Positions 2,486 through 31,400 are shown, counted from the first letter of the stretch. The stretch: DNA of 32,744 nucleotides from an uncultured Eubacteriales bacterium (GCA_948971535.1 CARFEX010000001.1:8321-41064), one strand, 5' to 3'. Made by a program: numbers and translations. The notes: generated by a model not told the origin, from the sequence alone.

Positions 2486-2500
2486 ATATTGGCTTTGCCA

Positions 2501-3943: not shown

Positions 3944-3964
3944 AACAGCATAATTTGCTGTTTT
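3944..3964 (-). terminator. Rho-independent terminator downstream of spoIIE
   Basis: AACAGCA / TGCTGTT stem with A/T runs on both sides (aaaaacagcataatttgctgttttttt). Confidence 0.65.
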
Positions 3965-3983
3965 TTTATTCTTTTTTAACTTT

Positions 3984-6272: not shown

Positions 6273-6306
6273 GATTTTCTCCATGAAAATAATTATAATT
6301 CACATG

Positions 6307-6345
6307 AAAAAATCCGCATAAGTGATATTTGTCCACTTTTGCGGA
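6307..6345 (-). terminator. Rho-independent terminator downstream of gmk
   Basis: On the minus strand TCCGCAAAAGTG pairs with CACTTATGCGGA (12 bp, 1 mismatch), followed by TTTTTT. Confidence 0.65.
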
Positions 6346-6370
6346 AAAGAATATAAATTTGTCATTGTAA

Positions 6371-8362: not shown

Positions 8363-9361
8363 ATGGAAAACAAAATTAACGAAATAAATAGACTCTATAT
8401 CCCAGCCCTCGCTGAAATAGAACAATTAAAAAATTTTTTAGATAAACGCCAAGTTGATTATGCTTTTGGGTTCCGTTATCAACATCATATATGGATAAAA
8501 GGGAATTTAATAGAAGAACAATATCCTATACCAGTAATGTATTGTTCCCTTCAAGGTAAAAGTATAGAGTTTGGCATTGATATTGTCCAAAATGAAGAAT
8601 ATATTGGATACTTAAAGTTACATCTTTCTAGAAAAGAACTTATAACCTTTGATTTCAAAAGTTTCAAAGACTTTAATTTCGAAATTTATCGTACTAACTA
8701 TCAGAAGATAAATAACATTAAAGAAATTAAACATTTAGAAGATAGTAACTTTTTAATCTACAGCAAATTCAAATCTATCGAACAAATTTATAAACTTATT
8801 GTAGACTCTACCGTTACCAAGCATAGAATACATAAAGGTGCTATCTTCTATTGTGATTGCAAACATGAAGTAACTATGCATACTAAACATGGAAAATGTC
8901 CCGTTTGTGGTAAAGAAAGCCCATATAAAAGAACTATAAAAATAAAATGTGATGTTTGTAGAAAAAAATATTTAACTTCCAAATATGATTATAAACCTTG
9001 TCCTAATTGTGGGTGGGTTAATGACATAATGTGTAGGAAATTTCCTAAAAATGCAATATCTTTATTTATGATTTCATTAAAGAAAGCTAGACAACTTTAT
9101 AAAATTAACGAGCCTTTTAGACCTAATTTTTATGATTTTCTTGAAGCTTTTGATTTTTATGGAGAAACTGGATTTAAATATAATAATATAGGCTTTGCTT
9201 TGTATAGGCATGGAGAAAATGGAATTGAAATGAACTGGGGACCAGAGCCAAATGGCACAATATACTTTAAAAACAAGGAAGATTTTATTGAAAATGCAAA
9301 AATTGGTGATGAGTATATAAAAGACATTTGGGATAGGATTGAAGAACCTAGTTATTTATAG
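8363..9361 (+). CDS. Hypothetical cysteine-rich protein with zinc-ribbon pairs and a CPCC-like module
   Basis: 332 aa. Cysteine pairs occur as CDCKHEVTMHTKHGKCPVCG, CDVCRKKYLTSKYDYKPCPNCGWVND. ISLKKARQLY follows, as in CPCC-family proteins (CPxCxWxDD ... SL.eAr.ny). The N-terminal 160 aa has no motif I recognise. Confidence 0.6.
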   Translation: MENKINEINRLYIPALAEIEQLKNFLDKRQVDYAFGFRYQHHIWIKGNLIEEQYPIPVMYCSLQGKSIEFGIDIVQNEEYIGYLKLHLSRKELITFDFKSFKDFNFEIYRTNYQKINNIKEIKHLEDSNFLIYSKFKSIEQIYKLIVDSTVTKHRIHKGAIFYCDCKHEVTMHTKHGKCPVCGKESPYKRTIKIKCDVCRKKYLTSKYDYKPCPNCGWVNDIMCRKFPKNAISLFMISLKKARQLYKINEPFRPNFYDFLEAFDFYGETGFKYNNIGFALYRHGENGIEMNWGPEPNGTIYFKNKEDFIENAKIGDEYIKDIWDRIEEPSYL

Positions 9362-9373
9362 ATGAATAAAAAA

Positions 9374-9396
9374 CATATCAAACTGATATGCTTTTT
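9374..9396 (+). terminator. Rho-independent terminator
   Basis: CATATCA (9374-9380) pairs with TGATATG (9384-9390), followed by CTTTTTG. Confidence 0.6.
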
Positions 9397-9398
9397 GT

Positions 9399-10391
9399 TT
9401 ATATATCCAAGCTATAAACATTGTAAAGTCTTGTTCTTGTAAAGGCTTTGTATTTTTTGCAGGCATTTTCAAAAAGTACATAAACTCTGCCGTCTACTAA
9501 TTCTATTTCTTCAGTCATACATGGAGCTTTTAATCTGCTAACCTCTGCATTTGCATCTAACATATAAACTGGAAGTTCACCACTTTCTATTGTAGTTGCA
9601 TGTGTAGCTGTTTTTTCTAAAACGTTATCATAGAGCATGATGTTCGAAGCTGGCAAACCGTATGAAGTTGAAAGCACAATTTTACCTTCTTTGTTAAAGG
9701 TCATTCCTTGCACAAGTCCTGGCATTGATATCCCCGCCTTTGGAGTTTCGCTTATTCCACAAATTGCAGTTTCATCCAAGTCATATATTAAACTTAAAGC
9801 AGGATTAATTTGGTCATTAGAAGTTTTTATATGATGGCTTTCAGGTGTATCATAGTTCCCTTTTCTATAAAATTCACCAACTATCAAACTTGTCTTGTTT
9901 TCTGAGTTTGTATAAGTTAAAACAAAGTCAGCTCCATTTCTAGTTTCTCTTTGGTCTAAAATTTCCACCTTGCTTTCATTCTCTGCATTAAGAGCTTCTG
10001 TCAAGCTGAATCTATAAATATGTTTATCGCCAACTATCCAAGCGTTATCTTGATAAGTTGTAATTCCTCCGCAATGTCCGACATAATCATCTCCGTCACT
10101 TGTTAAAGTTATGTATTTGCTAGCTTTGTCTTCACCCTTTTTAACAAAATACACACGACTAGCCCCACCCTTACTCATATATCCACCAATCAAAAACATT
10201 TCATTTTCTTGATTGTACGTCAATCCTTGTGGAGAAAAATGCGTGTCAAGTCCTGGAATAGCAAATTCTTGTTGAGCTTTAGCATAAAAATCTCCAAAAC
10301 TAGCACCAAAATAATAAACCATTAGCGCTACAAATAAAATTGCTAGAAATGCACTAATAGAAATTAATGTAATTTTCTTTTTCTTACTCAT
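9399..10391 (-). CDS. Hypothetical protein, N-terminal signal-anchor, extracytoplasmic beta-rich domain
   Basis: 330 aa. MSKKKKITLISISAFLAILFVALMVYYF is a positively charged N-terminus followed by a TM segment with no lipobox Cys. I recognise no family motif in the rest. Confidence 0.6.
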   Translation of the reverse strand: MSKKKKITLISISAFLAILFVALMVYYFGASFGDFYAKAQQEFAIPGLDTHFSPQGLTYNQENEMFLIGGYMSKGGASRVYFVKKGEDKASKYITLTSDGDDYVGHCGGITTYQDNAWIVGDKHIYRFSLTEALNAENESKVEILDQRETRNGADFVLTYTNSENKTSLIVGEFYRKGNYDTPESHHIKTSNDQINPALSLIYDLDETAICGISETPKAGISMPGLVQGMTFNKEGKIVLSTSYGLPASNIMLYDNVLEKTATHATTIESGELPVYMLDANAEVSRLKAPCMTEEIELVDGRVYVLFENACKKYKAFTRTRLYNVYSLDI

Positions 10392-10460
10392 ATCTCTATC
10401 TCCTAAGTTTTATTATATCACAATCATAAATTATACAAAAACAAAAATATAGTAAATATA

Positions 10461-10488
10461 AAAAGCATATCAACAAATATGCTTTTTT
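10461..10488. terminator. Bidirectional rho-independent terminator downstream of prfA
   Basis: AAAAGCATAT (10461-10470) pairs with ATATGCTTTT (10477-10486) around a CAACAA loop, flanked by T/A runs. Confidence 0.75.
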
Positions 10489-10512
10489 GATATTTTTTTT
10501 AATTGACTCCTC

Positions 10513-11598
10513 TTAGGCATTAGCAAGTTTTTCTGCTCTATCTTTTATAATTAATGCTTCGATAAATTGGTCTATATCTCCATCAAGAACGCCATTAATA
10601 TTGTATGAAGTTACATTTACGCGATGGTCTGTAACCCTTCCTTGTGGATAATTGTATGTACGCACTCTTTCAGAGCGGTCCCCCGTTCCAACCTGAGATT
10701 TTCTCTGTTCTTTATATTCGCTATCTTGTTGCTCTTTATAAAACTCATAAAGTTTTGAGCGAAGAATAGAAAATGCTCTTTCTTTGTTTTTAAGCTGTGA
10801 ACGTTCATCTTGACATGCAACAATGATACCTGTTGGAATGTGCGTGATACGAATTGCTGACTCAGTTTTATTAACGTGCTGTCCACCAGCTCCTGACGAA
10901 CGATATGTATCAATTCGTAAATCCTTTTCATCAATCTCAACATCCACATCTTCCACCTCTGGAAGCACTGCAACTGTTGAAGTTGAGGTATGAATACGTC
11001 CCTGCGATTCTGTTTCTGGCACACGTTGAACTCTATGAACTCCACTTTCATATTTAAGTCTACTATAAGCACCCTTACCTTTAACCATAAAGGTAACCTC
11101 TTTTATTCCGCCCAGTTCGGTTTCTGAAAGGTCAAGGATTTCACATTTCCAACGTCTTTTTTCCGCATAATATTGATACATTCTAAGAAGTACAGAACAG
11201 AAAAGTGAACTCTCTTCACCGCCTGCTGCCGAACGAATTTCTATAATGCAATTGTTGTCATCATTGACATCTTTTGGAAGTAATAAAATTTTAACCTCCT
11301 CAATTTTTTCTTCAATTTGAACCTTCAATGAACCTATTTCATGATAAAACATATCACGAATTTCTGCATCAGTTTCCACTTCATAATCATTTTGACAACT
11401 TTTATAATTTGACATAAGAGAAGCTAGCTGATCATGAGCCGATGCTAATTCCTCTAGCATTGAGCGCTCTTTTACCAGCTTTTTCCATTCCTTGTTGTCT
11501 GCAATTATTTCTGGTTTTGAAACTAGTTCTGTCAGTTCATCAAATCTTGATTTTGCCTTTTGTGTTTTTTCTAGAATATCAGTTCCTAACTCTTCCAT
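10513..11598 (-). CDS. prfA: Peptide chain release factor 1
   Basis: GGQ motif (SSGAGGQHVNKTESAIRITHIPTG). RF1-type PxT context RVQRVPETESQGRIHTSTSTV. 361 aa. RBS AAAGGA is 8 nt upstream. The start overlaps the prmC stop by 20 nt. Confidence 0.95.
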   Translation of the reverse strand: MEELGTDILEKTQKAKSRFDELTELVSKPEIIADNKEWKKLVKERSMLEELASAHDQLASLMSNYKSCQNDYEVETDAEIRDMFYHEIGSLKVQIEEKIEEVKILLLPKDVNDDNNCIIEIRSAAGGEESSLFCSVLLRMYQYYAEKRRWKCEILDLSETELGGIKEVTFMVKGKGAYSRLKYESGVHRVQRVPETESQGRIHTSTSTVAVLPEVEDVDVEIDEKDLRIDTYRSSGAGGQHVNKTESAIRITHIPTGIIVACQDERSQLKNKERAFSILRSKLYEFYKEQQDSEYKEQRKSQVGTGDRSERVRTYNYPQGRVTDHRVNVTSYNINGVLDGDIDQFIEALIIKDRAEKLANA

Positions 11599-13297
11599 AA
11601 ATTATCCTTTCTATTTTATTATAGTCTTTTATTATCTCAATGTCACTAAACCCAGCATCTTTCATAAGTGCCTTTACCTCTTCAGCTTGACCTATTCCAA
11701 GTTCAAAATACAACATTCCATTTTTAGCAAGATGCTTCTTTGAGTTTTCAATAATCTTTTTATAAAAATCTAATCCGTCATTTCCCCCATCGAGAGCAAG
11801 TTTAGGGTCAAACTTTTTAACTTCTATATCAAGCTTTTCTATATCTCCACTTTTGATATATGGAGGATTTGATACTATTATATCAAACTTTTTATTTTTT
11901 TTCAAGCCAGCAAACAGGTCAGAACAAATAAAGTCTACTTTAACATCCTGTTTTTTTGCATTATTTTCCGCAGTTTGCAACGCAGGTCTTGAAATATCAA
12001 TTGCAGTCATTTTTACATTGGAATTTTTTGCAATAGCGATAGCTATCGCCCCGCTTCCAGTACAAAGGTCACACACTTCTGGGTTCTTTCTTTTTGTAAT
12101 TTCTTTCAAAACCTCTTCAACCAAAATTTCAGTTTCCATACGTGGACTTAAAACTTTTTTGTTTACGTCTAGTCTCAACCCATAGAAGTCTACATAACCA
12201 AATATACTTGAAATTGGTTCTCCCTTACTTCGTCTTGCAGTTGCACGCAAAATATCACGATATTCTTTGGCAGTTATACTTCTGACTAGCTTTACCTCAC
12301 TACGATTTATATTTAGAACATTTGCAATAAGCCAGTCATAATCACTCTCTTCCACTCGTTCATTGCTTGAAAGTTTGGTTTGCATTTCGGCAAGCAGTGC
12401 CGACATAGGCACTCTATCTTTTTCCACTTCTTTAACATCCTTATCATAAGATTGTTCAAGCATTGTAACCTTAACTATTTCAAGGTGAGTTACAGTTGGC
12501 GTCATGGTATAAAGCCATGCAAATGCGATGTGCAAATCTTTAATCCAATTTTGTTTTACAATAGAGAGTACATAAAGCATTTCATAAGTTAAACTTAAGC
12601 ACAATATAAAAATTGCTAAATTAATAAGCCAATCTATTTCCCATAATACTTGAACTGATAAAAATGATACCATAAAAACAGAAAACAATAAAGCAAAAAA
12701 AGCAAAATTTAAAAAATTTAATGGATGATAAATTGAAGCTTCTGCTGATAGTTTTTTATTTTCACCAGAATTGACAGCTTTATTGCAAGCACCATTAAAA
12801 CGAAACAGCTCTTGCATGAATGGCATAAATCGAAAACAAAGAAAAGTTAAGTACAATATAGCAACACGAAGTAGTGCAATAATAAAAGTGGATAAATAAT
12901 AATTACCATTAAACCCCCATGTTGTCTTAAGTAAAAATGAAGGTAATACACCTATAGCAAAAAGACCATATAAAAGTCCAAATATTAAACTTGCAAAAAA
13001 CATAACATAGACAGAAGCTATATTAAATTTTTTTGCAATTTTGTAAGTTATATTTTTATCTTTTTCTTCAATATTATCAAGTGTCAGTCCCTTTGAATAA
13101 ACTTTGCATAGATATGCTATTCCAACAAAAAAGTATATCACACCGCGAATAATTGGAATATCCAAAAGTTTGAAATTGGTTTTAACTTTTTCTCTACCAA
13201 CCTTTTTATTACCATAATTATTGACAATGGCAACAATCATTTTGGTTTGGTCAAAACAACCTATGCCACTTCCGACTGGTAAAAATATCTTCTTCAT
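11579..13297 (-). CDS. prmC: Fusion protein: DUF1385 (YqhQ)-like polytopic membrane domain plus release-factor glutamine N5-methyltransferase PrmC/HemK
   Basis: The C-terminal ~270 aa is classic PrmC, with FGYVDFYGLRLDVNKKVLSPRMETE, DLCTGSGAIAIAIA and IIVSNPPYI. The N-terminal ~300 aa has IPIIRGVIYFFVGIAYL and several TM segments, like DUF1385. Start set at M42 (MKKIFLPVG, ATG at 13297) because the track ORF's first 41 codons cross the upstream terminator and the stop of the giant gene. Confidence 0.85.
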   Translation of the reverse strand: MKKIFLPVGSGIGCFDQTKMIVAIVNNYGNKKVGREKVKTNFKLLDIPIIRGVIYFFVGIAYLCKVYSKGLTLDNIEEKDKNITYKIAKKFNIASVYVMFFASLIFGLLYGLFAIGVLPSFLLKTTWGFNGNYYLSTFIIALLRVAILYLTFLCFRFMPFMQELFRFNGACNKAVNSGENKKLSAEASIYHPLNFLNFAFFALLFSVFMVSFLSVQVLWEIDWLINLAIFILCLSLTYEMLYVLSIVKQNWIKDLHIAFAWLYTMTPTVTHLEIVKVTMLEQSYDKDVKEVEKDRVPMSALLAEMQTKLSSNERVEESDYDWLIANVLNINRSEVKLVRSITAKEYRDILRATARRSKGEPISSIFGYVDFYGLRLDVNKKVLSPRMETEILVEEVLKEITKRKNPEVCDLCTGSGAIAIAIAKNSNVKMTAIDISRPALQTAENNAKKQDVKVDFICSDLFAGLKKNKKFDIIVSNPPYIKSGDIEKLDIEVKKFDPKLALDGGNDGLDFYKKIIENSKKHLAKNGMLYFELGIGQAEEVKALMKDAGFSDIEIIKDYNKIERIIYGRVRN

Positions 13298-13375
13298 ACT
13301 ATGATTATTAACTTTATAAATTGGTTTTAATCGTTTAGTTAAAGTAAAGTTTGTTTTTATTTTATTAGTTTTGAT

Positions 13376-13399
13376 AAAAAAGAACGCATTAAGCGTTCT
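13376..13399 (-). terminator. Rho-independent terminator of the giant gene
   Basis: AGAACGC (13381-13387) pairs with GCGTTCT (13393-13399), with extendable A/T flanks. On the minus strand a T-run follows (plus-strand A-run 13376-13380). It lies 8 nt past the TAA at 13407-13409. Confidence 0.8.
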
Positions 13400-13406
13400 T
13401 TTTTTA

Positions 13407-16400
13407 TTAGCTATTTGCAAGCTCTTCCAGTTTCTTTCTTCTCTTTCTTCTTGTAAGAATAATTATAACTACAATTAAGATAATCAATACAATTATTCCG
13501 CAAGCAACAGATATTCCGATTATAAGAGCATTATTTGTTGGTAGAACTTGAGCATGTTCGGTTATATGATGGAACAAACCATTATGAGATGTTATTGGTT
13601 TTTCATATGTTTTATATAACTCGATATTTTCTATGCTATTTGTTCCTAGGTCAAGAACACCATCGAATGGATTTTGTTCTATTCCTATTGGCTCCCAGAA
13701 CCTACCTGCTAAGTTAAGGCTTCTTGTAAGCTTGTAATAAGCTTGTGCATAAGCAAGATTTTCTTCGGTATTTATCATATAAGCTACATACGCAAGGTCT
13801 GCTTCGCTAGAAATGATGAATGGTTTATTTGCAGAGCCTTTACCTTCAAGTCTATCAGAACGAACTTCAGTCCAAATATTTCTAGCAAAATTGATTTCGA
13901 TAGAAATTGGTTTTGTAAGGTCTGGTTTATAGTTTGAAAGTGCAGGAGTGTAAATTTCTATACGTTTAGAAATTGAATTGTAACCAATATAATCTTTGTT
14001 AAAGTCTAGAATATATCTGCTTCCATTTGCTAAAAGCGCTACTGTTTCTACCCTGTAGTTAGCTCTTAGAGCTACATCCAAATAAAGTGTATTTCCAAAT
14101 GGGACTTTGTCAGTTTCTGAATCAGTGACAATAGTCATAGTTCCACCATTTGGTTTTCTATAAATAATTGTACCTGCAACTTCTACGTTGATATTGCCGT
14201 CTTTGAGATTTACGTTGAATTTAAAGCTAATTTGCTTGTTAGTTGCGACAGGAGCTAATACAATCATATTTTCATGAATGCTACCTGTAATACCAACAAT
14301 GTCGTCAGCAATAATCTCATAAATGTAAGCATCTTCATCTAGCACATATTGAGGTAGACTATATTTTTCATTCCATGCAACACTGTATCCATAATCAGCG
14401 GAAAGCTTAATCTTAACTATGTCCCCAACTTTGGCTTCATATTCTCTTAATATTTCACTTCCATCTGTATATACAATGCCATTGATTTCTAAATAAGTTA
14501 TCTTTCCATGTTCAGCAAATGCAGAATCGATTATTCTAACACCAACTACGTCACCTTCAAATACAGCAACAAGATTTAGAGGTTCAACTCTTCCAGCAGG
14601 AACTTTATAGCGCCAAATAGCAGTATAATATTTGCCTTCTGGAGTATTGTGTTCAATAGTTTCTCCTTCGCCTTTTTCACCAAATGGTTGTCCGTCCAAA
14701 GTTTCCCATCCAACAAACTTGTATCCTCTATGCTCTTCGGCAACTAGAGTAAACTCTTTTGTTGAATCAAATGAACCTTCGCTTGTAGCAGACTTTCCTT
14801 CTTGCACAAGGCTAGCTTTACCACCTTTATTGTTGACAGTAAGACTAAATTCAACTTCATAAACAGCTGTTATAGTTACCTCACCAAGTCCAGCAATATA
14901 AGTGTAATTTTTGTCAGTATGAGGTAATCCATCTTCTACACCATCACGTGCTACAACCCATTTAATGAACTTGTAGCCTTCAAATGGATAAGCTTGAAGA
15001 GTCATTTCAGTTCCAACAAGAACTTCAGCATAGAATTTCTTATCAATATCTGTCCATGAAGTATCTTTATTAAGGTTTGTAACAATATCCCTAACATTGA
15101 TATCCGTCTTATCTTTGAGTTCTGGTGGAATGAAATCTATAGTAAGTCTTTCTTTTTCAAATGACCAAGAAGCATAAATTGAATAAGTGTTGGTATTTTT
15201 ATCATAGTTTTCAACCTGTTTGTAACTACCGCTTACCCATTCATAAACATTTTCAAACCAAGCTGATATAGCATTTCCTTTTGCATCGATGTATTGATTG
15301 CCCATACCAAGAACTTTTGTGAAATATCCTTCAAAAGTAAACCCTGGTTTTGAAGCAACAATCTTTTCACGTATTTCATCAGTTATAACAAGATTTGAAC
15401 CATATCTGATATTTTCAAATACATATAGTGTTTCAGTTTCATTTACAAGAGCAACATTATATGTTTTTGGTTCAACATAGATTATAATTTCGCCACCTCT
15501 ATCTATTCCGCTTATCAAGAGGTTTGCCTTTTGAATAAATCCGTCTTGTTGCCATTTTGAACTACCGTCTTCATCGATATTGGTAGTAATAAGCGATTTA
15601 AGATTTTCATCATTAACATAGTATTTAATATTTCCACTATTATCCAAAACAAGTTGGTAGTTGAAACCAATATTAATTCCAATATTAACGTTTGCTGTTG
15701 TAACAGCATTGATGATAGCATTTGAAGTACCAGTTGTCGCACTAACAAGAGGGCTTGTGGTGTCTACTACAAACTTACCTGCAGCGATATCGACATTGCC
15801 ACCTTCGGTTCTAAATCTTATGTTAACTTGATTGTACTCTGCAATAAAGTTACCATTGATTTTAGCATTATCTTTAATCTTTGACACTTCAAAGTGAACT
15901 TTTTCTAGTTCCTTACCATTTTCAGTAATCTTATTTCTAGAAATTTCTCTTATTTCAAGTTGACTATCTCCATCGACATAGAATTTGTAACCTTTGTTAA
16001 CCTTTGCAATAAAGTAAAGTGTTGCATCAGTTTCAGAAAGCAATCTATAATGAGCTCCGTCAACCTTGAAACCTTCACCTGGGTATGGGTCAAGATAACT
16101 TGCGTTATTGTCTAGATTACCCTCCTTATCAGCAAGGTAAATCTTTCCACCGTCATCTACTCCATAAGTTCTTGAAAGAGCAACTTCCAATATTCCACGA
16201 ACGGTAATATAGGCTTCTCTTGCTTCATAAGAGATATTGATTGTGTCAGGTGTTGAAGTTGAAACAGGAAGAGTAATAACATTTGTTTGAGCATCATACC
16301 ATTCACTTCCGTCAACAATAGCACCAGCTAAAGTAAATTCTACTATTGTTTCATAACCCTCATAAGCACTTATAGTAACCACAAGGTCATTTCCAAAACT

Positions 16401-19400
16401 TACATTTCCAGTAGCTTTTGAGTTTTCGCTAAGAGTAAACTCTTCACCATTACCAAAGTTGTAAACAAGTGTTCCTTTGCTTCCATTGACAATAGTAACA
16501 GGTCTTTCAGCAACTCCAAAACGAGCAACAAGTTCAAGCACGCCATCTTCATTTAGATTATTTTCAAAGTAATCTTTCATAGTTTCATTGGCTTCAAAGT
16601 TATAATTTTCATCAGCTGAAAGTGAAATTTCTCCAACGAACCAACCATAGAATACATAACCATCTGTAGCTTTTGCGCTAACTGTTGTAGATGAGCCATA
16701 CATCATAGTAATAACATTTGTATCTGATGTAACAGTACCCATACTTTCATCACCGCTAACCGCTTGAACTTTATATTCACGTTCTGTAGCAGAAAGTGTT
16801 ATGTTTGTTCCAGCTTTAATTCCAGTGAGAGAATATTCTCTATAGAAAATCTTTGTATCATTATCAAATACATCTTGTTCTGTCATAGGTGTAACAATAA
16901 TATCCGCATTAGATGAACTGAAACCGATATCTTTATAGCCATACTTGAGAACAACTTTTATAGTAAGGTCCTTATCAGTTTCAATAGCAAAAGTTGCACT
17001 TGCATCTTTAATTTCTATTCTCTGACCATTTGCATAGATTGCATCAACTGACGCAGGAATATTATTAAAGTTAATTTTGTTTTTAATAGCACTTGCACTT
17101 GCCTCAACTGAAGCTCCGCCACGGAAGTCAGACCAAGTGATAACAAGTTTACCATTTGTAACGATTTCTGCAAATTTACCATTACCGCTAGTTGATAAAT
17201 AAGTTTTACCGCTTTCAAATTCATAACCTGCATCAGGAGCAATAGTAACTATAACTGTTGCACCAGTTTTAGATTGAATAATGCCATTAGTTTCTGTTCC
17301 GCCTGTAACGCTCTCAATTTCAGCATTGTGAAGAGTAACAGTAAGTTCATTATCTTGAGCAACAGCATTGATAGTAAGAACTCTATCTGCTGGCATATTT
17401 GAAATAGTTAAAATGTTTCCATTTTGAGCAAGTTCTATGCTGTCACCACTATAGTTGTAAGAAAGTTTATAACCGCTTTCTGGTGTAATAGAAATTTCCA
17501 AACTATTTCCATAAACAAGGTTGAACGCATCTCCACTTGTAACGTTGACTGTTCCAACTCTAACTACATCAATGTGGTCACCAATATTAATAGTGAGAGA
17601 GTAAGTTCCGTCAAACCAATTTGTGTAAAGGTCAAGTGTCCAAACTCCATTCTTTTCCTCTCCGATTACATCGAGGATAGAACCTTGTTCAAAAGTTTTT
17701 CCTTCGCTAGTCTTCCAGTTAAAATCTTTTCCTGTAAGAGTAGCTGTTGGGAATACACTTTCAATCTCATCACCAAACTTAATATTTGTGATTTTGTTTT
17801 CACCAACAAGAGTTCCGCCATCTGTAACATTGAATACGATTTCATATTCCTCGCCAGTCCAAACAGCTGAGAATATAATTTCAAAATTCTCAACAATGTC
17901 AGAATTATAACGGTCAAGAATCTCTTTCAAAGTTTGAGCCTCAGTGATGTCACCATTAGTATAAGAGTATCCTGTATGAGTATAGGTACCCGCTTGTGAT
18001 GCACTGAATTTTGCAAGCCAAGACCAAGCATTGATTTCAGCTGTGTCTACATAAGCAATCTCTTTTTCTAGCAAGTTCCAATCGTTTCCGCTTACGATTA
18101 TATCTTCTACTAGTTCAGGTTTATTGCCATCGAGCTTTATTGTAACTTTGATTGTATCCATGTTTACAACGAGACTAACATCGCTCTTAATTTGGTTAAG
18201 AGATATTTGTCCGTCTTTCTTTGTATTTTCACCTTGAGAGCTTGTTCCGCCTTTGATTTCTCCAGCAGTTACCTCAAAACTATCAAATACATATCCGTCT
18301 TTTCCTGTGATGCTAACCTTTACATCTGAGAAGTAGTCAAATTTAAATTTACCATTCTCTTCTTTCACTGTATCGCCGCTTGCTGCAATTGTAGCTTTAG
18401 CATTGTTGTAAGTGATATCAAGAGAATATCTTTCAATTTCCCAAACTGGGTAAATTGTAATTGTGTGATTTGTGTTGTCATAAGCTTGGTCAAGAAGAGC
18501 AAGGATATTTTCCTTTGTAATTTCTTGATAACTTACTTCACCGCTTTCACTTAATACTTGATTTTTCCAACCAATAACTTTGAACCCTTTTCTAGAAGGT
18601 GCACGAAGGTTAGCAAGCACTTCGCTGGCAACATTATTATCTTTATATTCAATAGCAAATTGTCTATAATAAATATTAATTTTTTCTTCGTCATTATTCA
18701 CGATATTGTCGTGTCCAAGAAGAGCAGTTTCATCTACAACAAGTGTAACTGTGCTAGCAGTAATAATTCCTGTTGGGTAACCTTCGTCACCAATAACATA
18801 GTTTGCACCATCACTGTTTAAATCAAGGACTACATTAACTTTATGAGTTCCAACATTTGCACTTTCAAACTTGGTTGCATCTTTATCTACAAGAATAACA
18901 TCACCAGCTAAAGCACCGTCAATTATCCATCTGTCAAAGTCAGTAGGAATTGCATCAGTTCTATCATAAGTTTTTGTTATACCTTGAGTTCCAGCAAAGC
19001 TAATTTCAACTTTACCAAGTTTAAGGTTTACTACAAATGTTTTTCCGTCAATTAACTCTTGATAGTTATTAGAGTTAATAGTAACTTTCAATGTGTGTTC
19101 TCCAGAAGCTAAATATTTGCCTGTAGAGAACTTCGCACTATCCTCAAATTCATATCCGCCAAGATTTACAAATCCGTCTGCAATAGCAGTTGTATAATTT
19201 CCACCGATTGTTAATGAATATTCGATAAGTGCGAGTATTTCACTTATACTCATTCCTTGCTTGATTTGTCCGTAAACAAGGTCAAGTTTTTCAGTTGGAG
19301 CAAAGCTAATATTTGTTTCCTTTGAAGGAGTGATATTTCCCTTTCCAACACTTGCAATGTTGTAGTTGTTGATATTGTCAGTCTCTTCCGCTGAGATAGC

Positions 19401-22400
19401 AATATCAAGAAGATTTCTTTCTCCAGCAAATGCACTATCGAACTTACCAATGATTGTAATTGTATCATCACCTTGAAGCCCGCTAACTACAATATCAGTA
19501 TCTTCAGTGAAATCACTAGTTGCGTCAAACTCTTTGCTTGCACTAACAGTTAAGTCAGCTTGTGTAATAACAAAGTTTGTTGCATTTGTAATTGTTGAAT
19601 TTGGATAATATGCGTTGTTAATATCAAGTGAAATTGTATAACTACCAGCATTAACAACATTTCCTATTGTGAAGGTAATACCAGTAAATACATTTTTGAG
19701 TTTATCTCCACTTAACACTTCAACTTTTCCACCAACTCTAAGAGTAAGGTCAAGTTTTGATGTTGCAATTACAACATCACTACCATTGTTATAAGCATTG
19801 AGTGACCAAGTATTTTCAGTTTCATCAAATACAAGTCCAAATTTAGTTTCTTGTTTGTTGTAAGATTTTGTGAATGCATTTGGTGAAAGTATATTAATTT
19901 CCAAACGTCCTTCTGAACGTTTAATCTCAAAGAAGGTGTTTCCTTCAGCTATTGAGATTGCGTAGTTATCATTATCAGCGCTAACGAATTCAACTTCATA
20001 AAAACCTATTTCGTTGACAGAAGTATCTTTTCTTCTAACTGTTATAACAACACTTTCTGTATTGCCGTCACCAAAGTCAAATACTTTAGTAATTGTCATT
20101 GGGTCTGGGTCTTCTTCGCCAACAAATTTATATAGATTGTTCACAAGTCCTTCTATTGAAGAAATTGTTTCAACCTTTTTGCTAACAACGAAGCTAGTTG
20201 TGTACTCACTGTCTATTTCATAAACTGTGGTATCAAAATTAAATGCGATTGTATAAATACCAGCATTAATAATTTCATTTACTTCTTGGCTAGTTGCTTC
20301 AGCATTTTTCTTATATGAAATTTCAAACCAGAAGTTTTCTTTTTTAAGAAGTTCTGCAAGAGTATACGTTTGTGTGCTTGTTCCTATAGTGATATCAAAG
20401 TTAATATCTCCTACAAAGTTTGCATGTTTATATTCACCGCTATTAGCACTTGTGCTAACAGAGATTTTTTGTTTTGCAACTTCTACATCAAATTCTACCT
20501 CAGTTGTTTTTGATGTAAAGCCTTCTTTTGAAGCAGTGATGACAACTTTGTATTTGCCATGTGCAGTAAAGTCTTTAACGATTTCAACAGATTGTCCTGC
20601 ATCAGTTGATGCCATAACATTTCCATTGTTGTCATACCATGTATAGCTATAATTTAAATCACCTTCGTTTGCTTTGTTAGTGATATTGCCTATAGCTTCT
20701 GCGAGGGTTATTGTTTGCTTTTTGCCAAACTCTGCAACAACATTTATAGTTTTGTTTCCGTCTGCAACTGGCAAAGCTATTTCCCAATTCGCAGTAATTG
20801 TAGCAGGTAAAATATTAGTGCCAGCTTCAGCAGAAAGCCTGTCGCCTTCAATTTCCAAACCTTGACTATTAGTAGTCCATTTTGCAAATTCAAAACCTTT
20901 CCAGTAACCAGGAACTTTATCATTGTCAGGTCTTGCAATGGTTTGAGCTGTTCCGCCAACCTCAACATAATAATCTGCAATCAAACTATCATGAGCAAAA
21001 TCCGCTTTAACATATTTAACATTTGTGTAAACTACAGTAAGTTTACCGTTAGCTGATACAGTTATGTTGTCTTTATAATTTGCCTCAACACCTTCAATAG
21101 TCTTGAGTTTTTCAAACATATTTTCAGCTAAAGTAGCTTCAGCTTCTTCGTTAGACCAAGCAACTAACTTAAGTCCAGTAACACCTGAAACTGTAACATT
21201 GAAAGTTACAGTAACACCTTCTTTCATAGCAACAACAATCTCATCAGTACCATTTCCGCTAATAGTAAAGAGTGTGTTGTTTTCTTCTATATAGTTAAAG
21301 AAGTTTTTATTTCCTATATTTATTTCTTTATCGCCATAACGAAGATTTGAAATAGTAAATCTGCCGTCAACCTTTGCAAAAGTTTTGTCTATTGTAAGCT
21401 TTTTAGCAGATAAATTATAAGTTGTCGCAGGCGTTTCTATAGTATAAGTTCCGCTAGCAGTCCAAACAAAGTTTTCTACATCAACACTGATTCCACTCAA
21501 AGTTGCAATTCTTGTATTATCTAGAATTGTAAACTGTGTTTGAACACCAGTATTTCCAGTAGTTTGAGCAGTTACACTAAATGCAAATTCTGATAGGTCA
21601 ACTCCGCTATTTGTTTTAGCTTGAGAGAGTGAAACTTGATGAGTTTTTCCTGTTTCAAGTCCAGCTCCAGTAACTTCAAACTCAATAGGTGTTTTTGTAA
21701 TAGTAACACTTCCCTCTAAAAGAATGAAATATCCATAAGTATCTTTTCCAATGCAATCGTCAGTAAAGTTCTTTCTAGCTTCATCAGTGAGATTTAAATA
21801 AACTTTTGCACTTCTGTCATTTCCTACATTGTAGTTGCCAGTAAGTTCAACTCTATTGAAAGTAGCATCAGAAATTTCCTTTCCGTCAATTAGTGCATGA
21901 CCTTTGTCTTCACTAGCATCAACAGCTACATAGGCTTTTGTGCCTGTGTAGTAACCATTAAAGTTTTGTTGTGACCAAGTCATAACAGCTTTAACTATAG
22001 TGATTAAATTTGTGTCTTTGCGGAGAATATAATCTTCTCCAGTAATAGCATCACGAACGATGATTACAAAAGCATAAGTTCCGCTGTCTTTAACATCCTT
22101 TAGTGAAAGTGTTAAAGTTTTGTCAGCAGTAAATTGAGTGAGTGTGTCATCTTCTTCAACTCGTGCGTAGTAATAATTTTCGATACTATCACCATTAGCA
22201 AAAGTTGTGTTAGAAGTAAGGTCAAACTCTGCATCATCAACTTCTACATTGCCTGTTGCAACAATGCGAGCTTCGCTATTATAAACAAGTTCGTTAACTT
22301 CGTCCTTGTTTGTTATAGTTAAGTAGTTTTGATAATCTTCTGCCCAAACAACTTCAATTATGCTATCTGCAGTAAGAGTATAAGGGTTTCCAATAACGTT

Positions 22401-25400
22401 CCAATTTTTGTCAACATCGTTATATGTTGCAATAATAGTATCGTTAGCTTTGTTTTTAATAGAAACAGGTTTGTATCCAGCTCTTGTAAAAACAAGGTTT
22501 GCAAGGTCTGTAGCAGAGTAAGCTTCATTAAATTCTACTTCTATATAATAGTTGCCTTCGCTATCACTTTGTGCACCAGTAACTTTTTCAAACTCACCTC
22601 TAAGGTTGATATTGAGTTTGTAAGTTGCAGGTTTTGCTGTGATAGTAAGAGTTCTAGGTTTTGTAATGTTATTCAAAGTAATTTGATTGCCATTAACAAC
22701 AACATTTTCGTTTTCAGCAAAAGCTCCGTTAACAGTGTCAAGAGTTGCTGTATCGATTACATATCCGCCTTCCAAAGTTATATCAAGAGTTACACTTGTT
22801 CCTGAAAGGATTGATGTTGAATTGCCATTTACAATTTGAGTTTGTCCTCTATAAACGGCTGTGATATGGTCACCATATGAAATTGTCACATCATAAGGTG
22901 CATCTCTCCAAACTGCGTAAAGAGTGAGTGTAGCTTCAGTTGCTCCTACATTTATCCCTTCTGCAGGAGTAGAAAGTTTATCACCCTCTGCATAAGAACT
23001 TCCGCCTAGTCCATTTTGTGTAGTGGACCAAATATTTACCTTTCCACCAGTGTGAGTTACCTCAGGCATACCAGTGATAGGTTCACCATAATCAACAACA
23101 AGAGTTGTTGTTGCACCGTCTACAAAACTACCCTCACCATTCAAATCAAAAGTGATTGTATATTGTACAGGTGTCCATTCAGCATTGAGAGTGTTTGTGA
23201 AAGTGAAGTCTGCATCAAGTTCGCTAGGAGCATCAACTGCCTTTTCGCTAGCATAAGTGCTATTGATAAAATCAAGAATTGTATCTGTGAATGCAACAGA
23301 ATTGCTTTCATACTTCCATGCTGTTTGATTATATGTACCAGCTTTTGTTGTTGCGAATTTTGCAAGTTCTTCCCCGATAGTATCAGTTGAAGCAAGCTCT
23401 GCAACTTTGATTTTGAACTCTACATTTTCATTTCCGTCAATAGTAGAGTAAGGTTGTTTGTTCGCATTAGCATTTATTGTAACAACAATGCTTTCCATAT
23501 TGAGTGTAAGTGTTGAAGAGTGTTGTTTAAGTCCACTAAGTGTAATAACTCTATTTTCTCTTTTACCCTTTTCAGCATCAATAATTTTGTCAACAACTCC
23601 ACTAAATTCATTTCCGCTATATTTATAACCAGTTTTTCCGCTAAACGTGATTACAACATTGTCACCAAAATGAACGCCATAAGTTGTTAAGTTTGCACCA
23701 GCATTTGTGCCATTTACATTTTCTCCACCAACTGAAACTGAAACTATATCAGCATTTTCATGATTAATGTTAAACGAAATAGGTGCACTTTCCCAAATAG
23801 CAGTAGCAGTAACATTTCTAGAATTTGTGAGAATTGAATTTCCACCTACAATTTCCCAAATGCTTCTTGTATCAGTGTTGTCTATTACTATAGGGTTTTC
23901 AAGTCCGTCATAAGTAATTTTCCAACCTTTCAAGTTGTAAGTGTTATCTTCGAGCTCATATTGTGGAAGAAGAGCCTTTGCAGTAACTCCTGCTGTATTA
24001 ACATTAAAGTCTTTGCTAGCAGTGTCCCAAGCTCCTGAAACAATTGTTGCCCCAGCATGTTCACCGTCATTAGCAGTGATTGTAATGATAATATAATCAA
24101 AGCTTACTGTTATAGTTATGTCATCCTTAACACCAGTAATTTCAAGAGAGCCATTTTTTGTGTTAGTTCCGCTTGAAGTGATAATTGCATTTTCTGTATT
24201 ATCCACACTAAAATCTTTGAAGTAATAACCATTTTCTGCAAGAACATCAAGGTTTATTTCTCCATTATAATATTTAGTAGTAAAAGTATTTCCAGCTATT
24301 TCACCATTTTTAATTTGACCTCTAGTGCTGTCAAATTTAACAGTAATAACCTTGTCTTGTTGTTCCCAAATTGCAAGAAGTTCTAGTGTGTTATTGTTTG
24401 CTAATACTTGTTTAAGTAAAGCAGTAACATTTTCATTTGAAACTTCAAGAGTTTCTTCAGTTCCCTCTTCGTTGGCAAATTTAAAGTTCCAACCAGTTTG
24501 AGTATATCCTCCTCCTACTCTTGTAGCAAAATTATCTACATCATTGATATCAGAAACTAGTTTTTCGTTGTTTCCTGTGTAGGTTATTCTAAATGAATTA
24601 TTGCCTTCAAAAGGTTGTTCTCCGTCTACAAAAGTTATTGTATCAAACTTGGCTGTAAAGTCAAAAATTGCATTTTCAATTCTACCAGCAGGGATACCAA
24701 TAATATTATAGTTGGCTCCATCTCCACCAAAAGTAAGATTGAGTGTTCTATCCCCGATCTGTTCACTGTCGTATGAGCCAGTAACTGTAACATTATCAAC
24801 TCCTACAAGTCCACTACCAATCCATGCAAAAGCTTGAGTTGAGCCAATTTGCATGTTGTCATGAGTTGCCGGCAAGTTCGCATTGCCATCAAAAGCCTTA
24901 GTAACTGTGGCAGTTTGACTGAGTGAAAGGTCTTTTTTAGTAACTTCAATTTTCAATTCATATTCTTTAGTATAGGTTCCGCTTTCATTTATTTCAGCAC
25001 CAAAAGTATAGTTTTGAGAAGATAAAGTAAATCTCACTACATACTTGTTTTCACTAGCTTTAAGTGAACTACTAGCAGTTGCAAAGATATCAGAAAGCGA
25101 GTTGTCAGCGTTTGTTGCTCCGTCTATTGTCACCGCATAAACAGAAACATAATCATTTATTTTAGCAAGAGTGTCTTCACCATTTTTAAGAGTAAGACCT
25201 ATAAAGTCAGCCATAGTTGAACTTACGTTATAATTGATTGTATTGATTTTTCCGTATTCTTGACTTAAATTTGCTCCATCCAAAGTTATTTCAATTTTCG
25301 ATGGTACAATCTTAGCCACAATTTCCGCTTTGTTATCAGCAAGAAGATAATTGTTTTCAACTTCTCCTGAGCCGAGTGCAATAGTTGCAACAGTTGTATT

Positions 25401-28400
25401 TCCAACATTAACTTGTGAAAGAGTACCTGAAATTACAACCTCTTCACCATCTACAATTCCGCTAACATTGACAGTTATATTTGCATCAGCTTTTTGACTG
25501 TTCCAAGAGAATGTATTTTTTTCATCAAACACTTTTTCAATATCACTAACAGTAATAACAGCTTGGTTAACTTTGATTGCTTTGTCATTTGCAATATTTC
25601 CGCCAAAATCCGCACCATTTGGGAAGGTTGCATTTTCTACTCCAAGACTTACTGCTATTCCGTACTCTCCAACATTTTTACTTGCACCAACAACGTTGAA
25701 ATTAAACTCATTGAGGATAGTTTCTATATTGGTTTCAAGTTCATTTAAGTTTTCACCTATCATGTGGAAGAGTGAAACTCTAGTAGTTGCCAGAATATTT
25801 CCGTCAACATCTTTTGCTTGTAAGTACCAGCCAGCAGTTGTAAACCATGCCTCTGTACTTGAATTAAAGTATACCTTGTCAATGCTTGCAACCGCTTTGC
25901 CATTATAAGAATATTCAAGACGTTTATCAAGATTGATTTGTAGTTTTGAAGTTGGAGCAGTGATAACAAAGAATAATCCTTCGCCGTCCTTTGCTACCGC
26001 TTTATAATTGGTATTTTCTGGGTCAAGCACTGTTAAAACTTTGTTACCAACACTTTCTCCAGCCTCTCTATTAAACTTGATTTTAACACTTTCGCCATTA
26101 ATAGGGTAATTAATTTCAAGAGCAGGGTCTCTATACCCAAACACTTTTGTCAATGACTTAACGTCATCAGCAGTAAGAATGATAGTATAAGGTGCAACTA
26201 CAACATTTTCAGCAGTAACATTTCCGCTATATACTGTTGGATCAATGTTGAGTGTTAAAGTATAAGTTCCAGCATTCTTGATTTCATTGCCAGCGCCACC
26301 AATAGTAAACCAAATGTCACTATTTTCAACAAGATTGTTAGCAAGAATAAAATCTTTGCCAGCGCCATCAACTGTAAGTTTGATTATTACATTTCCCTCT
26401 TGTCTTGCATTATTATACACAAGTCCGTCAGTAGGGTTTGTTTCAACAACCATCGTTCCGCTTATAACTCTAGTTTGTATAGCGATTTCAAAAGTAAAGT
26501 CTTCACTATTTGTAGTTTGTTTATTTCCGCTAGCACCATTGACATCTGTATAACTTGCTGTAACCTTAACAGTAAAGTTACCATTTATAGCAGTTGTTTT
26601 TCTACCAAAATCATAGCTTTCAGCTGTGCTAAATTCATTGCCTTCACTATCCACCCAAGAATAAGTGTATTTGATAAGATTGTTGTTATTGTTTTTGTTT
26701 GTAAATGTAAACAAGTCATTTAGGTTTATTACAAGGTTTGCATTGGCATCCCCGATTAATGAAGCTTTGTCATTAAACAAGTTCTTTTTACTTGTATACT
26801 CTGGATTTAAAAGAGTCCATCTTCCGATAGCTTCAACAGGAGTTGACCCACCAGTAGAATTAAAGTTGAACTTTCCTCCATTAACTTTGCTTGCAGTAAG
26901 CCCATTGCTTGTAGCCCATTTGTCAAAAGCAAAACCTTCCATATTAGCTAAATCAGGGTCAACAATGTCTATTCCCGCATCATCTCCTGATGAAAGATAG
27001 AAAGTTTTAGGAGTAAGGTTAATTATATGTTCATTTGTTTTGTTTTCATAAAGCTTAACCTGTCTTACATCAGTAAGAACTGCTAAGAAAGATTGGTCAA
27101 CTTCTGAACCTTGAAGATTAAGGTTGATTTCTCTTCCAGCACTAGCAACAAAGTTGTCTATATACGAGCAACTATCTTCCTGCCAAGAAGCAACTATATC
27201 TCTATCAAGGAACCCTAAGAAACTAAGTCTTGAATCAGCTATTTTTTCGCTAAGAGTGATAGTAAAGCTTATTCCAGCATTTTTTCTTACAGCAATAGCA
27301 AGTCGGTCAGTTCCATTTCCGATGATAGTAAATAAAGTTCCACCATTCTCATCAAACTCAGAATATTGTTCATCAGTTATTAAATTGCCTTGGGCATCTT
27401 TAACAGAAAGCATGTATTGAGCATTACCATAACTATCAATGAGCGAACCACCTTGGAGGTCAAGATTACCATTTCTAGCAACGAGATAACGTACGTCATA
27501 GGTGAAAGTATTTGCAACAATAGAACTGTCAACTATTTCATAAGTACCAACAACTTCAAATGTATAGTTATCGCTTGAAACTACATTTCCGTTTTTAGTA
27601 ACTTGGAAGTTTCTAACAGTAAATGTTTTTCCTTCATCTTGTCCATATACACCAATCAAAGAACTACTTGTTAAAACGCTGTCAAATTGAACTGAGAAAT
27701 CAAAGTCTTTAATTACGTCACCTTTGTCACCATAAGTAGCAGTGGTGCTACCTATAACAACCTTGTGTAGTAAATCTTGAAGATAAAAGCCTTGTTGAGC
27801 CCCATTTTTAACATTTAATTTAATAGGTAATTTAACTATGTAAATTCCACCATTTGAATCTGCATCAGAAGTAGCAATAGTATATTCACTTGTAGTATTT
27901 TCAGAGCTAGGCATTTGTTCAGTTAAACCATAGTTGTAAGCTTGTTGTTCTGTGAGTCTGAATGTGAATTTTGCAGGATAACTTATTCCGTTATCAACCT
28001 TGCTTCCTTTCACGTCAAATTTTCCACTAGCATCTACAACTGTTACTCTTGTGTTTGCTATTGATAATAAAGGAGCATCGCTCTCACTTGTCATGTGAGT
28101 AAATTTTATATTTCCTCTATTTGAATTTTCAGTTTCAGCAACACTTTCACTTCCAGTATAATATGTTTCCATATCTACACTGTCAAGATAAATTTTATTG
28201 GCATTTATAGTAGCGCTTATTGGAGCAGAAGTTATAGAATATCTTTCCACCTCAAATCCACGTCCAGCTGACAAACTATCAGAAATTGTGATTTTAAGTT
28301 TATAAGGTCCATAATTTCCAGCATTTAAACGATTTAAACTGAGTCCACTTGTTATAACTTGTGTTTCGTCTTCATTTACTATGGAAATTTCAGAAATATT

Positions 28401-31400
28401 TTCACCATTAGCAACCAAGCCAGCACCAGTGTAAACAACCTTTTCGCCCGCAACAGTTGCACTAATTTCACCAGCTAAAATTTCCTGTTCTCTTTCTATA
28501 TAATATAGCCCGCTGTTGGCTTTCAAACTTGCAGTTAAGAAACTGTTATCTAAGTCTCTCTCCCAAACAGGATATACATTGATATTTCCAACATAATTGT
28601 AAATAGTTTCACTATCAATAATAGTTTTTGTTTCAGTTTCAGCAAAACCAACTAATTTGTAACCATCTCTTGTTACATTAAAAGGTATAGTTCCAATAGC
28701 TTTATCAAAGATAACTTCAAAACTGCTTTCTCCCTCAACTTGTTCGTATTTGCTGTCAGTTAAAAGTGTGATTGTGTAAGGATTGGCCTCGTCAAGAATT
28801 TGAACATTGAATATCTGTCCTGAGGTTAAATAATCGGCATTTGCAACCAATGTAGCAAACATTGAATTGTCTAAAGTAAATGCATATTTACCTTGGTCAT
28901 CCTTAGTAATTACGGCATGCTTAGCGCCCTCTTTGCTACCTAAAATTTCAAAACCAGAAATTGTGTATCCAGCTCTACCTAAATATTGCACAGAGTCATT
29001 AAATATACCGCTGAAATCATTTTCATTTACAACAAAATTTAATAATGCGTCAATGCTTAAATTAATACTTCCGTCAATAGCATCTCCGTTAGGAGCTTTA
29101 AAGCTAATCTGATAAGAAAGTTTGTCTGTAAATTCTGGTTGCATTATTATGCTGACCGAGTATCCATTTTCTTCTATTAAGTTTTCAGACCAAACTCTTG
29201 CATCTATAGTAATTAATCCATTTGAATAACTTAAATTCTGATTATTTAATATATCAAAGTTTTCGTTCAAAATTGTCCAGTTGCTTGCTTCAGCATATCC
29301 TGCACGGCGAATGTTTTTTATAAAATCAGACAAGTTAGCAGTATTATCTTCATGATTATAATAATATACTAATTGGTTTGTTAAATCACTATTTTCAACA
29401 CCCCAGTTTACACCACCATCAACGGTTAGTAACCCTTTTTGATTGTCTGAAATATTGTTTCCATGAGAACCATATATTTTAACAGTTTTTTGTCTGATTA
29501 TAGGAGTTATTTGCAATAGAATTTCATCTGTAGTTTTAGCTATTTCACCTATTTCATCCAAAAATTCTTTGCTATTAAACAATTTCCATGAATACACTGA
29601 ATTTTCAGCGAAGTACATATCTTGTGTTTCATTTTTATTTATTTGTGTTGTAAAAGTATGTGTTCCGTAAGTATATCTCCAGCCTGCAATATAATAACCT
29701 TTATCGATTACATTTGGAGAAAAATAACTAGTTTTAATATCAAAGACAAATTGATTTTCTTCAAGTCCCATGAAATCTAAAAAGTTCTGTGGCACATCAT
29801 TTAAACAACTAAAATTGTTATAACGGAAATCATTTTCAGGATAATTCCCAGTATATGAATTTAATTTCCACTTTATATTATCTTTTAAGATTAATGAGTC
29901 ATTTCCAGCCCCATTCCAATTGTTCACTAAGACATTTGTTTTGATATCGTTATTATGAGGAAAATCATAACCAAGCCTCATTGTTTTTAAATCAATAGGC
30001 ATTATAACATCTTGTGTTAAATCCAATGAAAACTCATCACTAACAAAAGTGCAAGTTTCTGGGTCCCTAGTTAAAGGTATATCAAACATTGCCTCATTAA
30101 TTCTCATTATCTTAGCAAATTTTGCAAGATAAGATTTTTCAGGGTCAGTTTGAAATTTTAATTCAAATTTCAATGGTTGTCCAGGCAAGAATTCTGTAAT
30201 AGGTGCTTTTGTAGTATCACTTGCAACATAAACTATTGCATAATCTATAAATTCATCTACAGGGTAAGCTATTCCTTCATAAGTTTGCTCTTCTCCATAA
30301 AGAGTACGTTTTTGTGTAAGACTATACTTAATGGCCTGCATTTTGAAATCGATAAAATAATTATCTCCAGGAGTAAGGTTAGCAAATTTATATACGCGAT
30401 ATTCATATCCTTCACTACTTGGTTTTAAAACTTCTTCTGTATGAGGTATTACTTCTCCACTAATACTATTACCTTTATGCAAAATCAAGCTACCAGAAAC
30501 AGTCTTGTAGTATTTGTTATGTTTAATATAGAAAGATATTGAGTTGTCGGCATTTGGTTCAATATGCCAATCTTGAAAGCTTCCAGATTGAATAAAGTCA
30601 AAATTTTCAGTGCTACTTATACCTAATGTTTGACCTTCTATAAAATCATTTTTTAGCCCATCAACAAAACCAAATTCTCCGCTACTAAATATCATAGCTT
30701 TAGTTTTAGTTTGTATTGATATATTTATTTCATCTTCATTTGATGCAATATATTCACTACCTTGTGACCTACTAAATGTTTGATTAATGTATTTTCCGTC
30801 AGAACCTTCATAGGTGATTTCAAATTTATTTTCACCATTAGAAGAAATAATTGGAGTTAATATAAAGTATCTGGCATTAGGAATAATTTTGAGAATAAAA
30901 TGGTCGCCTGTGTTTAATGAAAAATTTAAAACATTGTTAAGTTCTGTTAAACTATTTCCAACAAAAGTTTGTGTAGCACCACTATTAATAGATAACTCTA
31001 TTTTTTCTACCTTATCGCCTTCAAAGTTTACTTTTATATCATCTCTTTTTTGTTCAACGATAAATATAATTTCTCCAGTTGCAACTATGTTTTCAAAAGT
31101 AACTGTATAACTATTATTTTCACCAATCTCAACTTTGTATTTTACAGGTGTAGCTGAATCTATATTGCTATCAGCAAACATACCGAAAATGCCATTTTGA
31201 CTAAAATTATATTCATTTAAAATAGTAGCATTTTCAAAGTTTGTCCCTGTTGTTGCCCCAGCGAGAGTATATCCGTCTTTGAGAGTAAAGTTAAAAACTA
31301 ATTGGTCTTCTACTTTATAATCATTCAAATTTATACTATTGAAAATATTATTTACAGTTGACTCGTCTTTTCCAGCAACATTAACATTCTTCTCTCCAGC

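Follow-up and report, generated by a model that had tools for sequence, protein, structure and literature searches.

Blocks of consecutive domains duplicated in tandem are well documented in eukaryotic giants but poorly described in bacterial surface proteins, for which near-identical single-domain repeats are the usual explanation of differences in length. Titin has 7- and 11-domain super-repeats, nebulin has 7-module super-repeats that different vertebrates carry in different numbers (PMC7754682), and tandem multi-domain duplications have been described in general (PMC8275333). Periscope proteins are variable-length surface rods of Gram-positive bacteria; their repeats are single domains of very high DNA identity, their variation is attributed to homologous recombination, and they carry an LPXTG anchor (PMC9704523). 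Fibrillar adhesins form a further group of long surface proteins (PMC8286594, PMC9210967), and a giant immunoglobulin (Ig)-repeat adhesin of 7,651 residues is known from Mobiluncus mulieris (PMC10619420). Here, we describe a giant open reading frame (ORF) in a 32,744-nucleotide (nt) stretch of DNA from an uncultured Eubacteriales bacterium (GCA_948971535.1 CARFEX010000001.1:8321-41064), which we call the window. Its product carries two consecutive copies, unit 1 and unit 2, of a super-module made of an ordered series of blocks, B1 to B6 (Table 1).

We put at roughly 85% the probability that this protein records one ancient duplication within the gene, that both copies were kept, that related lineages repeatedly collapsed them in register, and that the units are segments of a stalk. 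The comparisons below show that a single tandem duplication of the ordered B1-B6 block, about 1,700-2,070 residues long, occurred before the sampled species of the genus diverged. The copies have since drifted to 29% amino acid (aa) and 48% nt identity, both being retained intact under similar purifying selection, and in several lineages the two units independently collapsed, in register and near the B3/B4 boundary, into a hybrid that takes its head from unit 1 and its tail from unit 2. Each unit would be a string of about 17-22 small beta domains, a stalk segment of a fibrillar surface protein. The giant protein would be secreted and tethered by a C-terminal membrane helix, and the number of units would set the distance of its N-terminal part from the cell.

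This locus resembles titin and nebulin in that consecutive domains were duplicated as a block, the colinear copies are about 30% identical and their number differs between species; it differs in being a bacterial surface protein with one to three very large copies (about 17-22 domains) and no known ruler partner. With periscope proteins it shares the form of a long rod-like surface protein with a membrane- or wall-proximal C-terminus, its length changed by gain and loss of tandem units. However, the units here are 5-6 kb long with 48% DNA identity, the variation is between species and the anchor is a transmembrane helix, no LPXTG motif being found when the C-terminal sequence was inspected. 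Judged by its sequence, the giant protein is therefore not a periscope protein by definition, given the low DNA identity between repeats and the lack of LPXTG, although the kind of outcome, variable length, is the same, with units that are much larger. Its likeness to fibrillar adhesins lies in a signal peptide, a very long predicted stalk of tandem small beta domains, a predicted surface anchor and fast evolution; surface attachment of this kind is predicted from the topology of the sequence, since the full-length form and its orthologues begin with a signal peptide and the C-terminus has a hydrophobic helix. In contrast to those adhesins, no adhesive head was recognised, the stalk domains mostly fall outside Pfam and are not near-identical, and they form a duplicated ordered series. 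Likeness to the Pfam families Flg_new and Flg_new_2 (Listeria-Bacteroides repeat, InlB B-repeat), MBG_2 and YDG is limited to a few individual domains.

The original prediction, made by reading the translation of the window against itself, had placed six pairs of anchor motifs in the two units. All six exist, none of them more than a few bases from the position it gave, with offsets of 2073, 2021, 2013, 2006, 2003 and 1764 aa. A BLAST search of the whole protein against itself returned the trivial self-match only, and searches by segment or chunk were used instead. In BLASTP, unit 1 (residues 1393-3465) matched the rest of the protein in two colinear high-scoring segment pairs, one joining 1789-2993 to 3810-4973 (25.5% identity, E = 1.5e-44) and the other 2976-3390 to 4760-5148 (27.7% identity, E = 1.3e-26). 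Aligned with MAFFT, the units shared 29% aa identity across 1,610 aligned columns, with identities spread from end to end at 22-39 per 100 aligned columns. Profile-profile comparison in hhalign, with profiles made from five two-unit proteins, gave one alignment running from positions 1-1997 of unit 1 to 1-1680 of unit 2 (E = 1e-128). Block by block, Smith-Waterman scores of cognate pairs set against 200 shuffles gave z = 5.6 for B1, then 18.7, 19.0, 11.6 and 15.1, and 24.1 for B6.

Could the anchors reflect likeness at the level of single modules, in a protein with many Flg_new, MBG/YDG and Ig-like copies whose order agrees by chance? Small domains of the GY..GW type were found outside the units too, an older, weak periodicity of about 200 aa runs through the second half of each unit (off-diagonal hhalign matches at E ~1e-10), and one non-cognate pair, B6 of unit 1 with B5 of unit 2, scored 96 in the Smith-Waterman block matrix. 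However, all other non-cognate pairs scored 36-65, which is background, and cognate pairs 90-221; the main hhalign diagonal scored 1,131 and the best shifted alignment about 100, ten times lower; and the B1-B6 order was kept in every homologue examined. As colinearity extends over the whole unit and non-cognate blocks sit at background, we reject this scenario of shuffled small domains, which we consider very improbable. The conserved long-range order that separates a block duplication from such shuffled copies is present.

At the DNA level, the two units are far diverged. Codon-aligned nt identity between them is 47.7%, third positions agree at 41% against 34% expected from composition, and synonymous sites are close to saturation. 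The longest in-register exact run between the units is 15 nt, and no direct repeat longer than 53 nt was found anywhere in the giant ORF. A DNA identity of 48% and a longest run of 15 nt indicate that the duplication is old, not an artefact of assembly. A recent origin, or a misassembly of what is a metagenome-assembled genome (MAG) in 160 contigs with the gene running off a contig end, strikes us as extremely improbable: besides the divergence of the copies and their near-expectation third positions, the same layout recurs in at least 12 further species representatives, each assembled independently, and a protein 99% identical to this one occurs on 5 contigs.

Unit number varies among relatives. 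We found matches in 54 of the 151 genomes of the genus that were searched and none among 195 other genomes of the order, representing 119 genera; a search for related loci with the C-terminal region gave only distant small-domain matches in unrelated phyla. Open-frame lengths in the genus were bimodal, at about 4,300-4,925 aa and 6,000-6,930 aa, with single cases of 5,327, 5,669 and 7,689 aa and several frames truncated by contig ends. We fetched 23 homologues and mapped their blocks with hidden Markov models (HMMs) built from six aligned two-unit proteins, as HMMs from the two window copies alone were too narrow to detect orthologous blocks and were not used. The two-unit layout, B1-B2-B3-B4-B5-B5x-B6 followed by B1-B6, was found in G000 and eleven other genomes (G002, G005, G010, G017, G041, G084, G093, G045, G009, G115 and G049, with B1-B2 unrecognised in G049), and also in the database proteins P0002 and P0004-P0013 (B1 not detected in P0009-P0013). 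Nine genomes had one unit (G095, G096, G014, G044, G077, G022, G024, G131 and the very divergent G015), and one, G144, had three B1-B6 series. Copy-number variation in orthologues, which had been put forward as something to look for, thus extends over one-, two- and three-unit forms. The orthologues are 20-36% identical to the window protein; the RF-1 proteins of the closest relatives' genomes found are 73-85% identical. Separately, G055 (locus L115, 5,669 aa) and G079 (L114, 5,327 aa) carry a B3-like sub-block five or six times at a spacing of about 220 aa, around residues 2140-3750, where B3 and B4 would normally follow each other; this family has thus also expanded in another way.

We built unrooted maximum-likelihood trees of blocks B3 and B4. 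In the B4 tree, all 13 unit-1 copies lay on one side of a branch and every unit-2 copy on the opposite side, the species groupings of one half being mirrored in the other; the unit-1 branch had a bootstrap of 61 and a Shimodaira-Hasegawa-like approximate likelihood ratio (SH-aLRT) of 96, and was found in 66% of bootstrap trees. In the B3 tree, the unit-2 copies formed a clade (88/90). Because the copies of each unit group with their counterparts from other species and not with the other unit, these trees point to one duplication before the sampled species diverged. Single-unit proteins took different places in the two trees, grouping with unit 1 in B3 (7 of the 7 scored) and with unit 2 in B4 (8 of 8), as well as in B5 and beyond. 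Approximately unbiased (AU) tests rejected the opposite placements (p = 1.5e-8 and 7e-10) and also trees that unite the single-unit sequences in one clade (p = 1.6e-58 and 1.9e-45). By its tree placements, then, the single unit of at least eight species representatives is a hybrid in which the head of unit 1 is joined to the tail of unit 2.

Each single-unit protein was compared with its nearest two-unit relative, in sliding windows and in a scan for breakpoints, and a clean switch from unit-1-like to unit-2-like sequence was seen. Relative to the start of B4, the switch fell at -22 aa in G095, about +100 to +160 in G096, about -3 to -126 in G014/G044/G077, about 0 to +43 in G022 and about -170 to -280 in G131; the scan did not fix its position in G024. 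The collapse junctions all lie in a stretch of about 450 residues that spans the B3/B4 boundary. Together with the AU rejection of a single origin, these positions argue that two units collapsed into one hybrid independently on at least three occasions, and probably on five or more.

A single-unit ancestor, with two-unit proteins arising several times or by fusion of neighbouring paralogous genes, would agree with the single-unit form being about as common as the two-unit form in the genus scan, with the trees being unrooted, and with G015 and G024 being too divergent for placement. However, unit-1 and unit-2 copies each group across species with the single-unit proteins nested at differing places among them, and those proteins pass from the unit-1 group in B3 to the unit-2 group in B4-B6, which is impossible for a protein that predates the duplication. 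Moreover, the ORF translation holds no leftover signal peptide, anchor or terminal module between the units, which adjoin at residues 3465/3466. We regard this alternative as highly unlikely.

The single duplication followed by in-register collapse makes a prediction for the other product of an exchange between unit 1 and unit 2, and the three-unit protein of G144 (7,689 aa) apparently has the expected pattern: its heads and tails run h1-t1-h2-t1-h2-t2, as would the reciprocal product of unequal exchange. Its contig, C3 (loci L110/L111, merged positions 9194-19070), contains an exact direct repeat of 4,888 nt with a period of 4,989 nt, and the ends of the repeat fall 111 residues into B4. This triplication may stem from a genuine, recent exchange that left a patchy junction, or from misassembly. 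In all variants, each unit has one complete B1-B6 series and no more, which suggests that it is the in-register products that fold or function, and so survive. As the units have almost no DNA identity, the exchanges are unlikely to have gone by ordinary homologous recombination. Illegitimate or microhomology-mediated events would fit better, with selection letting through the products in which every unit has exactly one complete B1-B6 series.

One difference between the units was also foreseen. The offset between them had been said to shrink by about 250 residues from the fifth anchor pair to the sixth, and we measured a drop from 2003 to 1764, or 239 aa. An extra block of about 197 aa, B5x, accounts for most of it. 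B5x is a diverged copy of the B5 that precedes it, resembles the B5 of unit 2 as well, and was found by the block scan in G000 and all 11 of the other two-unit genomes. A tree of B5, B5x and unit-2 B5 has three groups, and it does not decide the timing of B5x relative to the main duplication. As a separate observation, unit 1 of G144 has a single B5 (residues 2695-2895), which groups in the tree with the B5x of G002; this suggests a further in-register collapse, of B5 and B5x.

We estimated the ratio of nonsynonymous to synonymous substitution rates (dN/dS) along the protein. In the closest two-unit pair, G017/G093, it was 0.18 in the N-terminal region, 0.17 in unit 1, 0.19 in unit 2 and 0.11 in the C-terminal region, and in the single-unit pair G014/G044 it was 0.19 for the unit, all rough values. 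Both units are clearly under purifying selection and about equally constrained. Collectively, colinearity, divergence, shared layout, trees and dN/dS agree with the original prediction that the tandem duplication is old and has been kept by selection, and that it is neither recent nor a product of assembly.

Searches against protein families recognise little in the units. A Pfam run on whole units and on 230-aa pieces gave two matches above the gathering threshold, YDG (PF18657) at residues ~4580-4651 of unit 2 (33.8 bits against a cut-off of 25) and Flg_new_2 (PF18998) in the C-terminal region (48.1 against 23.6). Two more fell below the cut-off: MBG_2 (PF18676) at residues ~4201-4269 of unit 2 (23.7 against 25) and Flg_new (PF09479; 21.4 against 27). 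Nothing in Pfam matched B1, B2 or the N-terminal 1,392 residues. The matching domains sit in B3, B4, B6 and the C-terminal region, and are few of about 70 domains, mostly below or near the cut-offs.

AlphaFold models, made from 12-row alignments, consisted almost entirely of beta strands in many short runs. For B4-B6 of unit 2 (746 residues) the mean predicted local distance difference test score (pLDDT) was 83.6 and the predicted template modelling score (pTM) 0.40; for B1-B3 of unit 2 (954 residues) they were 70.3 and 0.35. Confident domains with a low global pTM would fit beads on a string. Foldseek searches with the whole multi-domain models found only multi-domain, stalk-like proteins, among them pilins, a Bacillus TIE protein, the GhpA neck, SraP, S-layer proteins, cadherins and titin I65-I70, at low template modelling scores (TM-scores), as would be expected in comparisons of whole flexible models.

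From the predicted folds and topology, we infer that the units act as stalk or spacer. A different function would be compatible with the history set out above: the units may not be interchangeable spacers, each block type, and perhaps each unit, having its own role in binding or assembly, and the duplication may have been kept for new specificities and not for length. Throughout the genus, unit 1 and unit 2 have indeed stayed distinct as sets of orthologues, with similar constraint on both, every collapse or expansion retains a complete ordered B1-B6 of blocks unlike each other, and orthologues evolve fast relative to RF-1, as is typical of interaction surfaces. However, lineages with one hybrid unit persist with intact ORFs under purifying selection, and the units have no recognisable ligand-binding domain and are modelled as uniform strings of beta domains. 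This alternative, which departs from the stalk reading in function only, seems to us rather unlikely.

If the units are stalk segments, changes in how many super-modules there are may serve a giant surface fibre as a heritable switch of its length, with no need for DNA identity between units. We offer this tentatively, with the odds somewhat against it. Such a switch would involve repeated and always in-register exchange, concentrated within about 450 residues at the B3/B4 boundary, of 5-6 kb units about 48% identical, yielding both collapsed and expanded products. Either a particular site would then be prone to recombination, or the products of illegitimate recombination would pass a very strong filter for folding or function. 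Uncultured gut Clostridia with small genomes would thereby have a counterpart, on a large scale, to periscope proteins.

Several points weigh against the interpretation of one old duplication, repeated collapse and a stalk role. The bootstrap of the B4 unit-1 clade is weak at 61 (SH-aLRT 96), and the groups used in the AU tests were named after the trees had been seen. Small domains of similar type lie on either side of the units, whose boundaries are therefore fixed only to within some 100 residues; in a shuffle test of boundary extension, the sequence upstream of 1393 was marginal (z = 4.6) and that downstream of 5155 gave no signal (z = -0.1). The dN/dS values are rough because dS, at about 1.3, is close to saturation. 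The three-unit form is known from one metagenome-assembled contig, and the remaining 101 nt of each period in its repeat are only about 93% identical, a feature that is not predicted by simple exchange. As 54 of the 151 genus genomes gave a match, the protein is not universal in the genus. The stalk role itself has its basis in predicted folds and topology, and the Pfam scans found no recognisable adhesive or ligand-binding domain.

With these points counted, the family still offers a clean, datable case, in which one ancient duplication of about 20 domains was retained for long under selection and followed by at least three independent in-register collapses and one apparent reciprocal expansion; it also shows that protein length can vary even where the units share almost no DNA identity. 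Proteins of one, two and three units form a natural series, which could serve in testing whether stalk length matters to the attachment of these uncultured, probably host- or partner-dependent bacteria. For annotation, the analysis explains the domain-poor look of these proteins in Pfam and provides a B1-B6 block map for the family, a handle on an abundant, little-studied group of giant surface proteins.

Table 1. Features of the giant ORF in the window and the blocks of its two units.
Feature	Window coordinates	Strand	Residues	Remarks
Giant ORF	13407..32744	(-)		6,445 codons in window + stop; single open frame reaching window end
Unique N-terminal region	28569..32744	(-)	1-1392	Outside duplication
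Unit 1 of super-module	22350..28568	(-)	1393-3465	
Unit 1 B1			1393-1741	
Unit 1 B2			1742-2088	
Unit 1 B3			2089-2426	
Unit 1 B4			2427-2763	
B3+B4 of unit 1	24456..26480	(-)		Unit-1 side of junction zone of single-unit and three-unit relatives
Unit 1 B5			2764-2984	
Unit 1 B5x sub-module, ~197 aa	23202..23792	(-)	2985-3181	In unit 1 only
Unit 1 B6			3182-3400	Followed by 65-aa linker domain
Unit 2 of super-module	17250..22349	(-)	3466-5165	
Unit 2 B1			3466-3770	
Unit 2 B2			3771-4090	
Unit 2 B3			4091-4419	
Unit 2 B4			4420-4737	
B3+B4 of unit 2	18534..20474	(-)		Unit-2 side of junction zone; holds MBG_2-like and YDG matches
Unit 2 B5			4738-4953	
Unit 2 B6			4954-5155	
Unique C-terminal region	13410..17249	(-)	5166-6445	Flg_new_2-type domain, membrane-proximal module, transmembrane helix, basic tail

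The giant ORF is truncated at its 5' end inside the signal peptide, the window end (32744) being the end of the contig. The 99%-identical database protein is full length at 6,458 aa and begins MKKNILRSFYCFMVM, followed by the first residues of the window; this, and the typical signal peptide at the start of orthologues, indicates that about 15 residues are missing from the window ORF. At the other end, the hydrophobic, transmembrane helix is followed by the basic tail RRKRRKKLEELANS. The genome is 938 kb and 95% complete (those of the genus range from 0.7 to 1.4 Mb), and the giant gene, by far the largest there, makes up about 2% of it. The neighbouring genes (a PrmC fusion, RF-1, an amidase, Gmk, SpoIIE and TilS) and a G+C content of about 32% indicate a sporulating Firmicute. 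By RF-1, its relatives are uncultured Clostridia and Eubacteriales MAGs from mouse, human and ruminant gut.

Two further features were seen. A 158-codon ORF on the plus strand (22329-22805) is nested wholly within the giant minus-strand gene, as a candidate ORF only. Within the protein, residues 77-161 (window 32260-32514) resemble residues 6311-6395 (13560-13814), near the membrane anchor, with 31% identity (E = 1.7e-6). Self-comparison did not find this N-to-C module likeness in G014 or G024; it is present in six other self-compared homologues (G002, G005, G010, G015 and G017, and G009 via G000).

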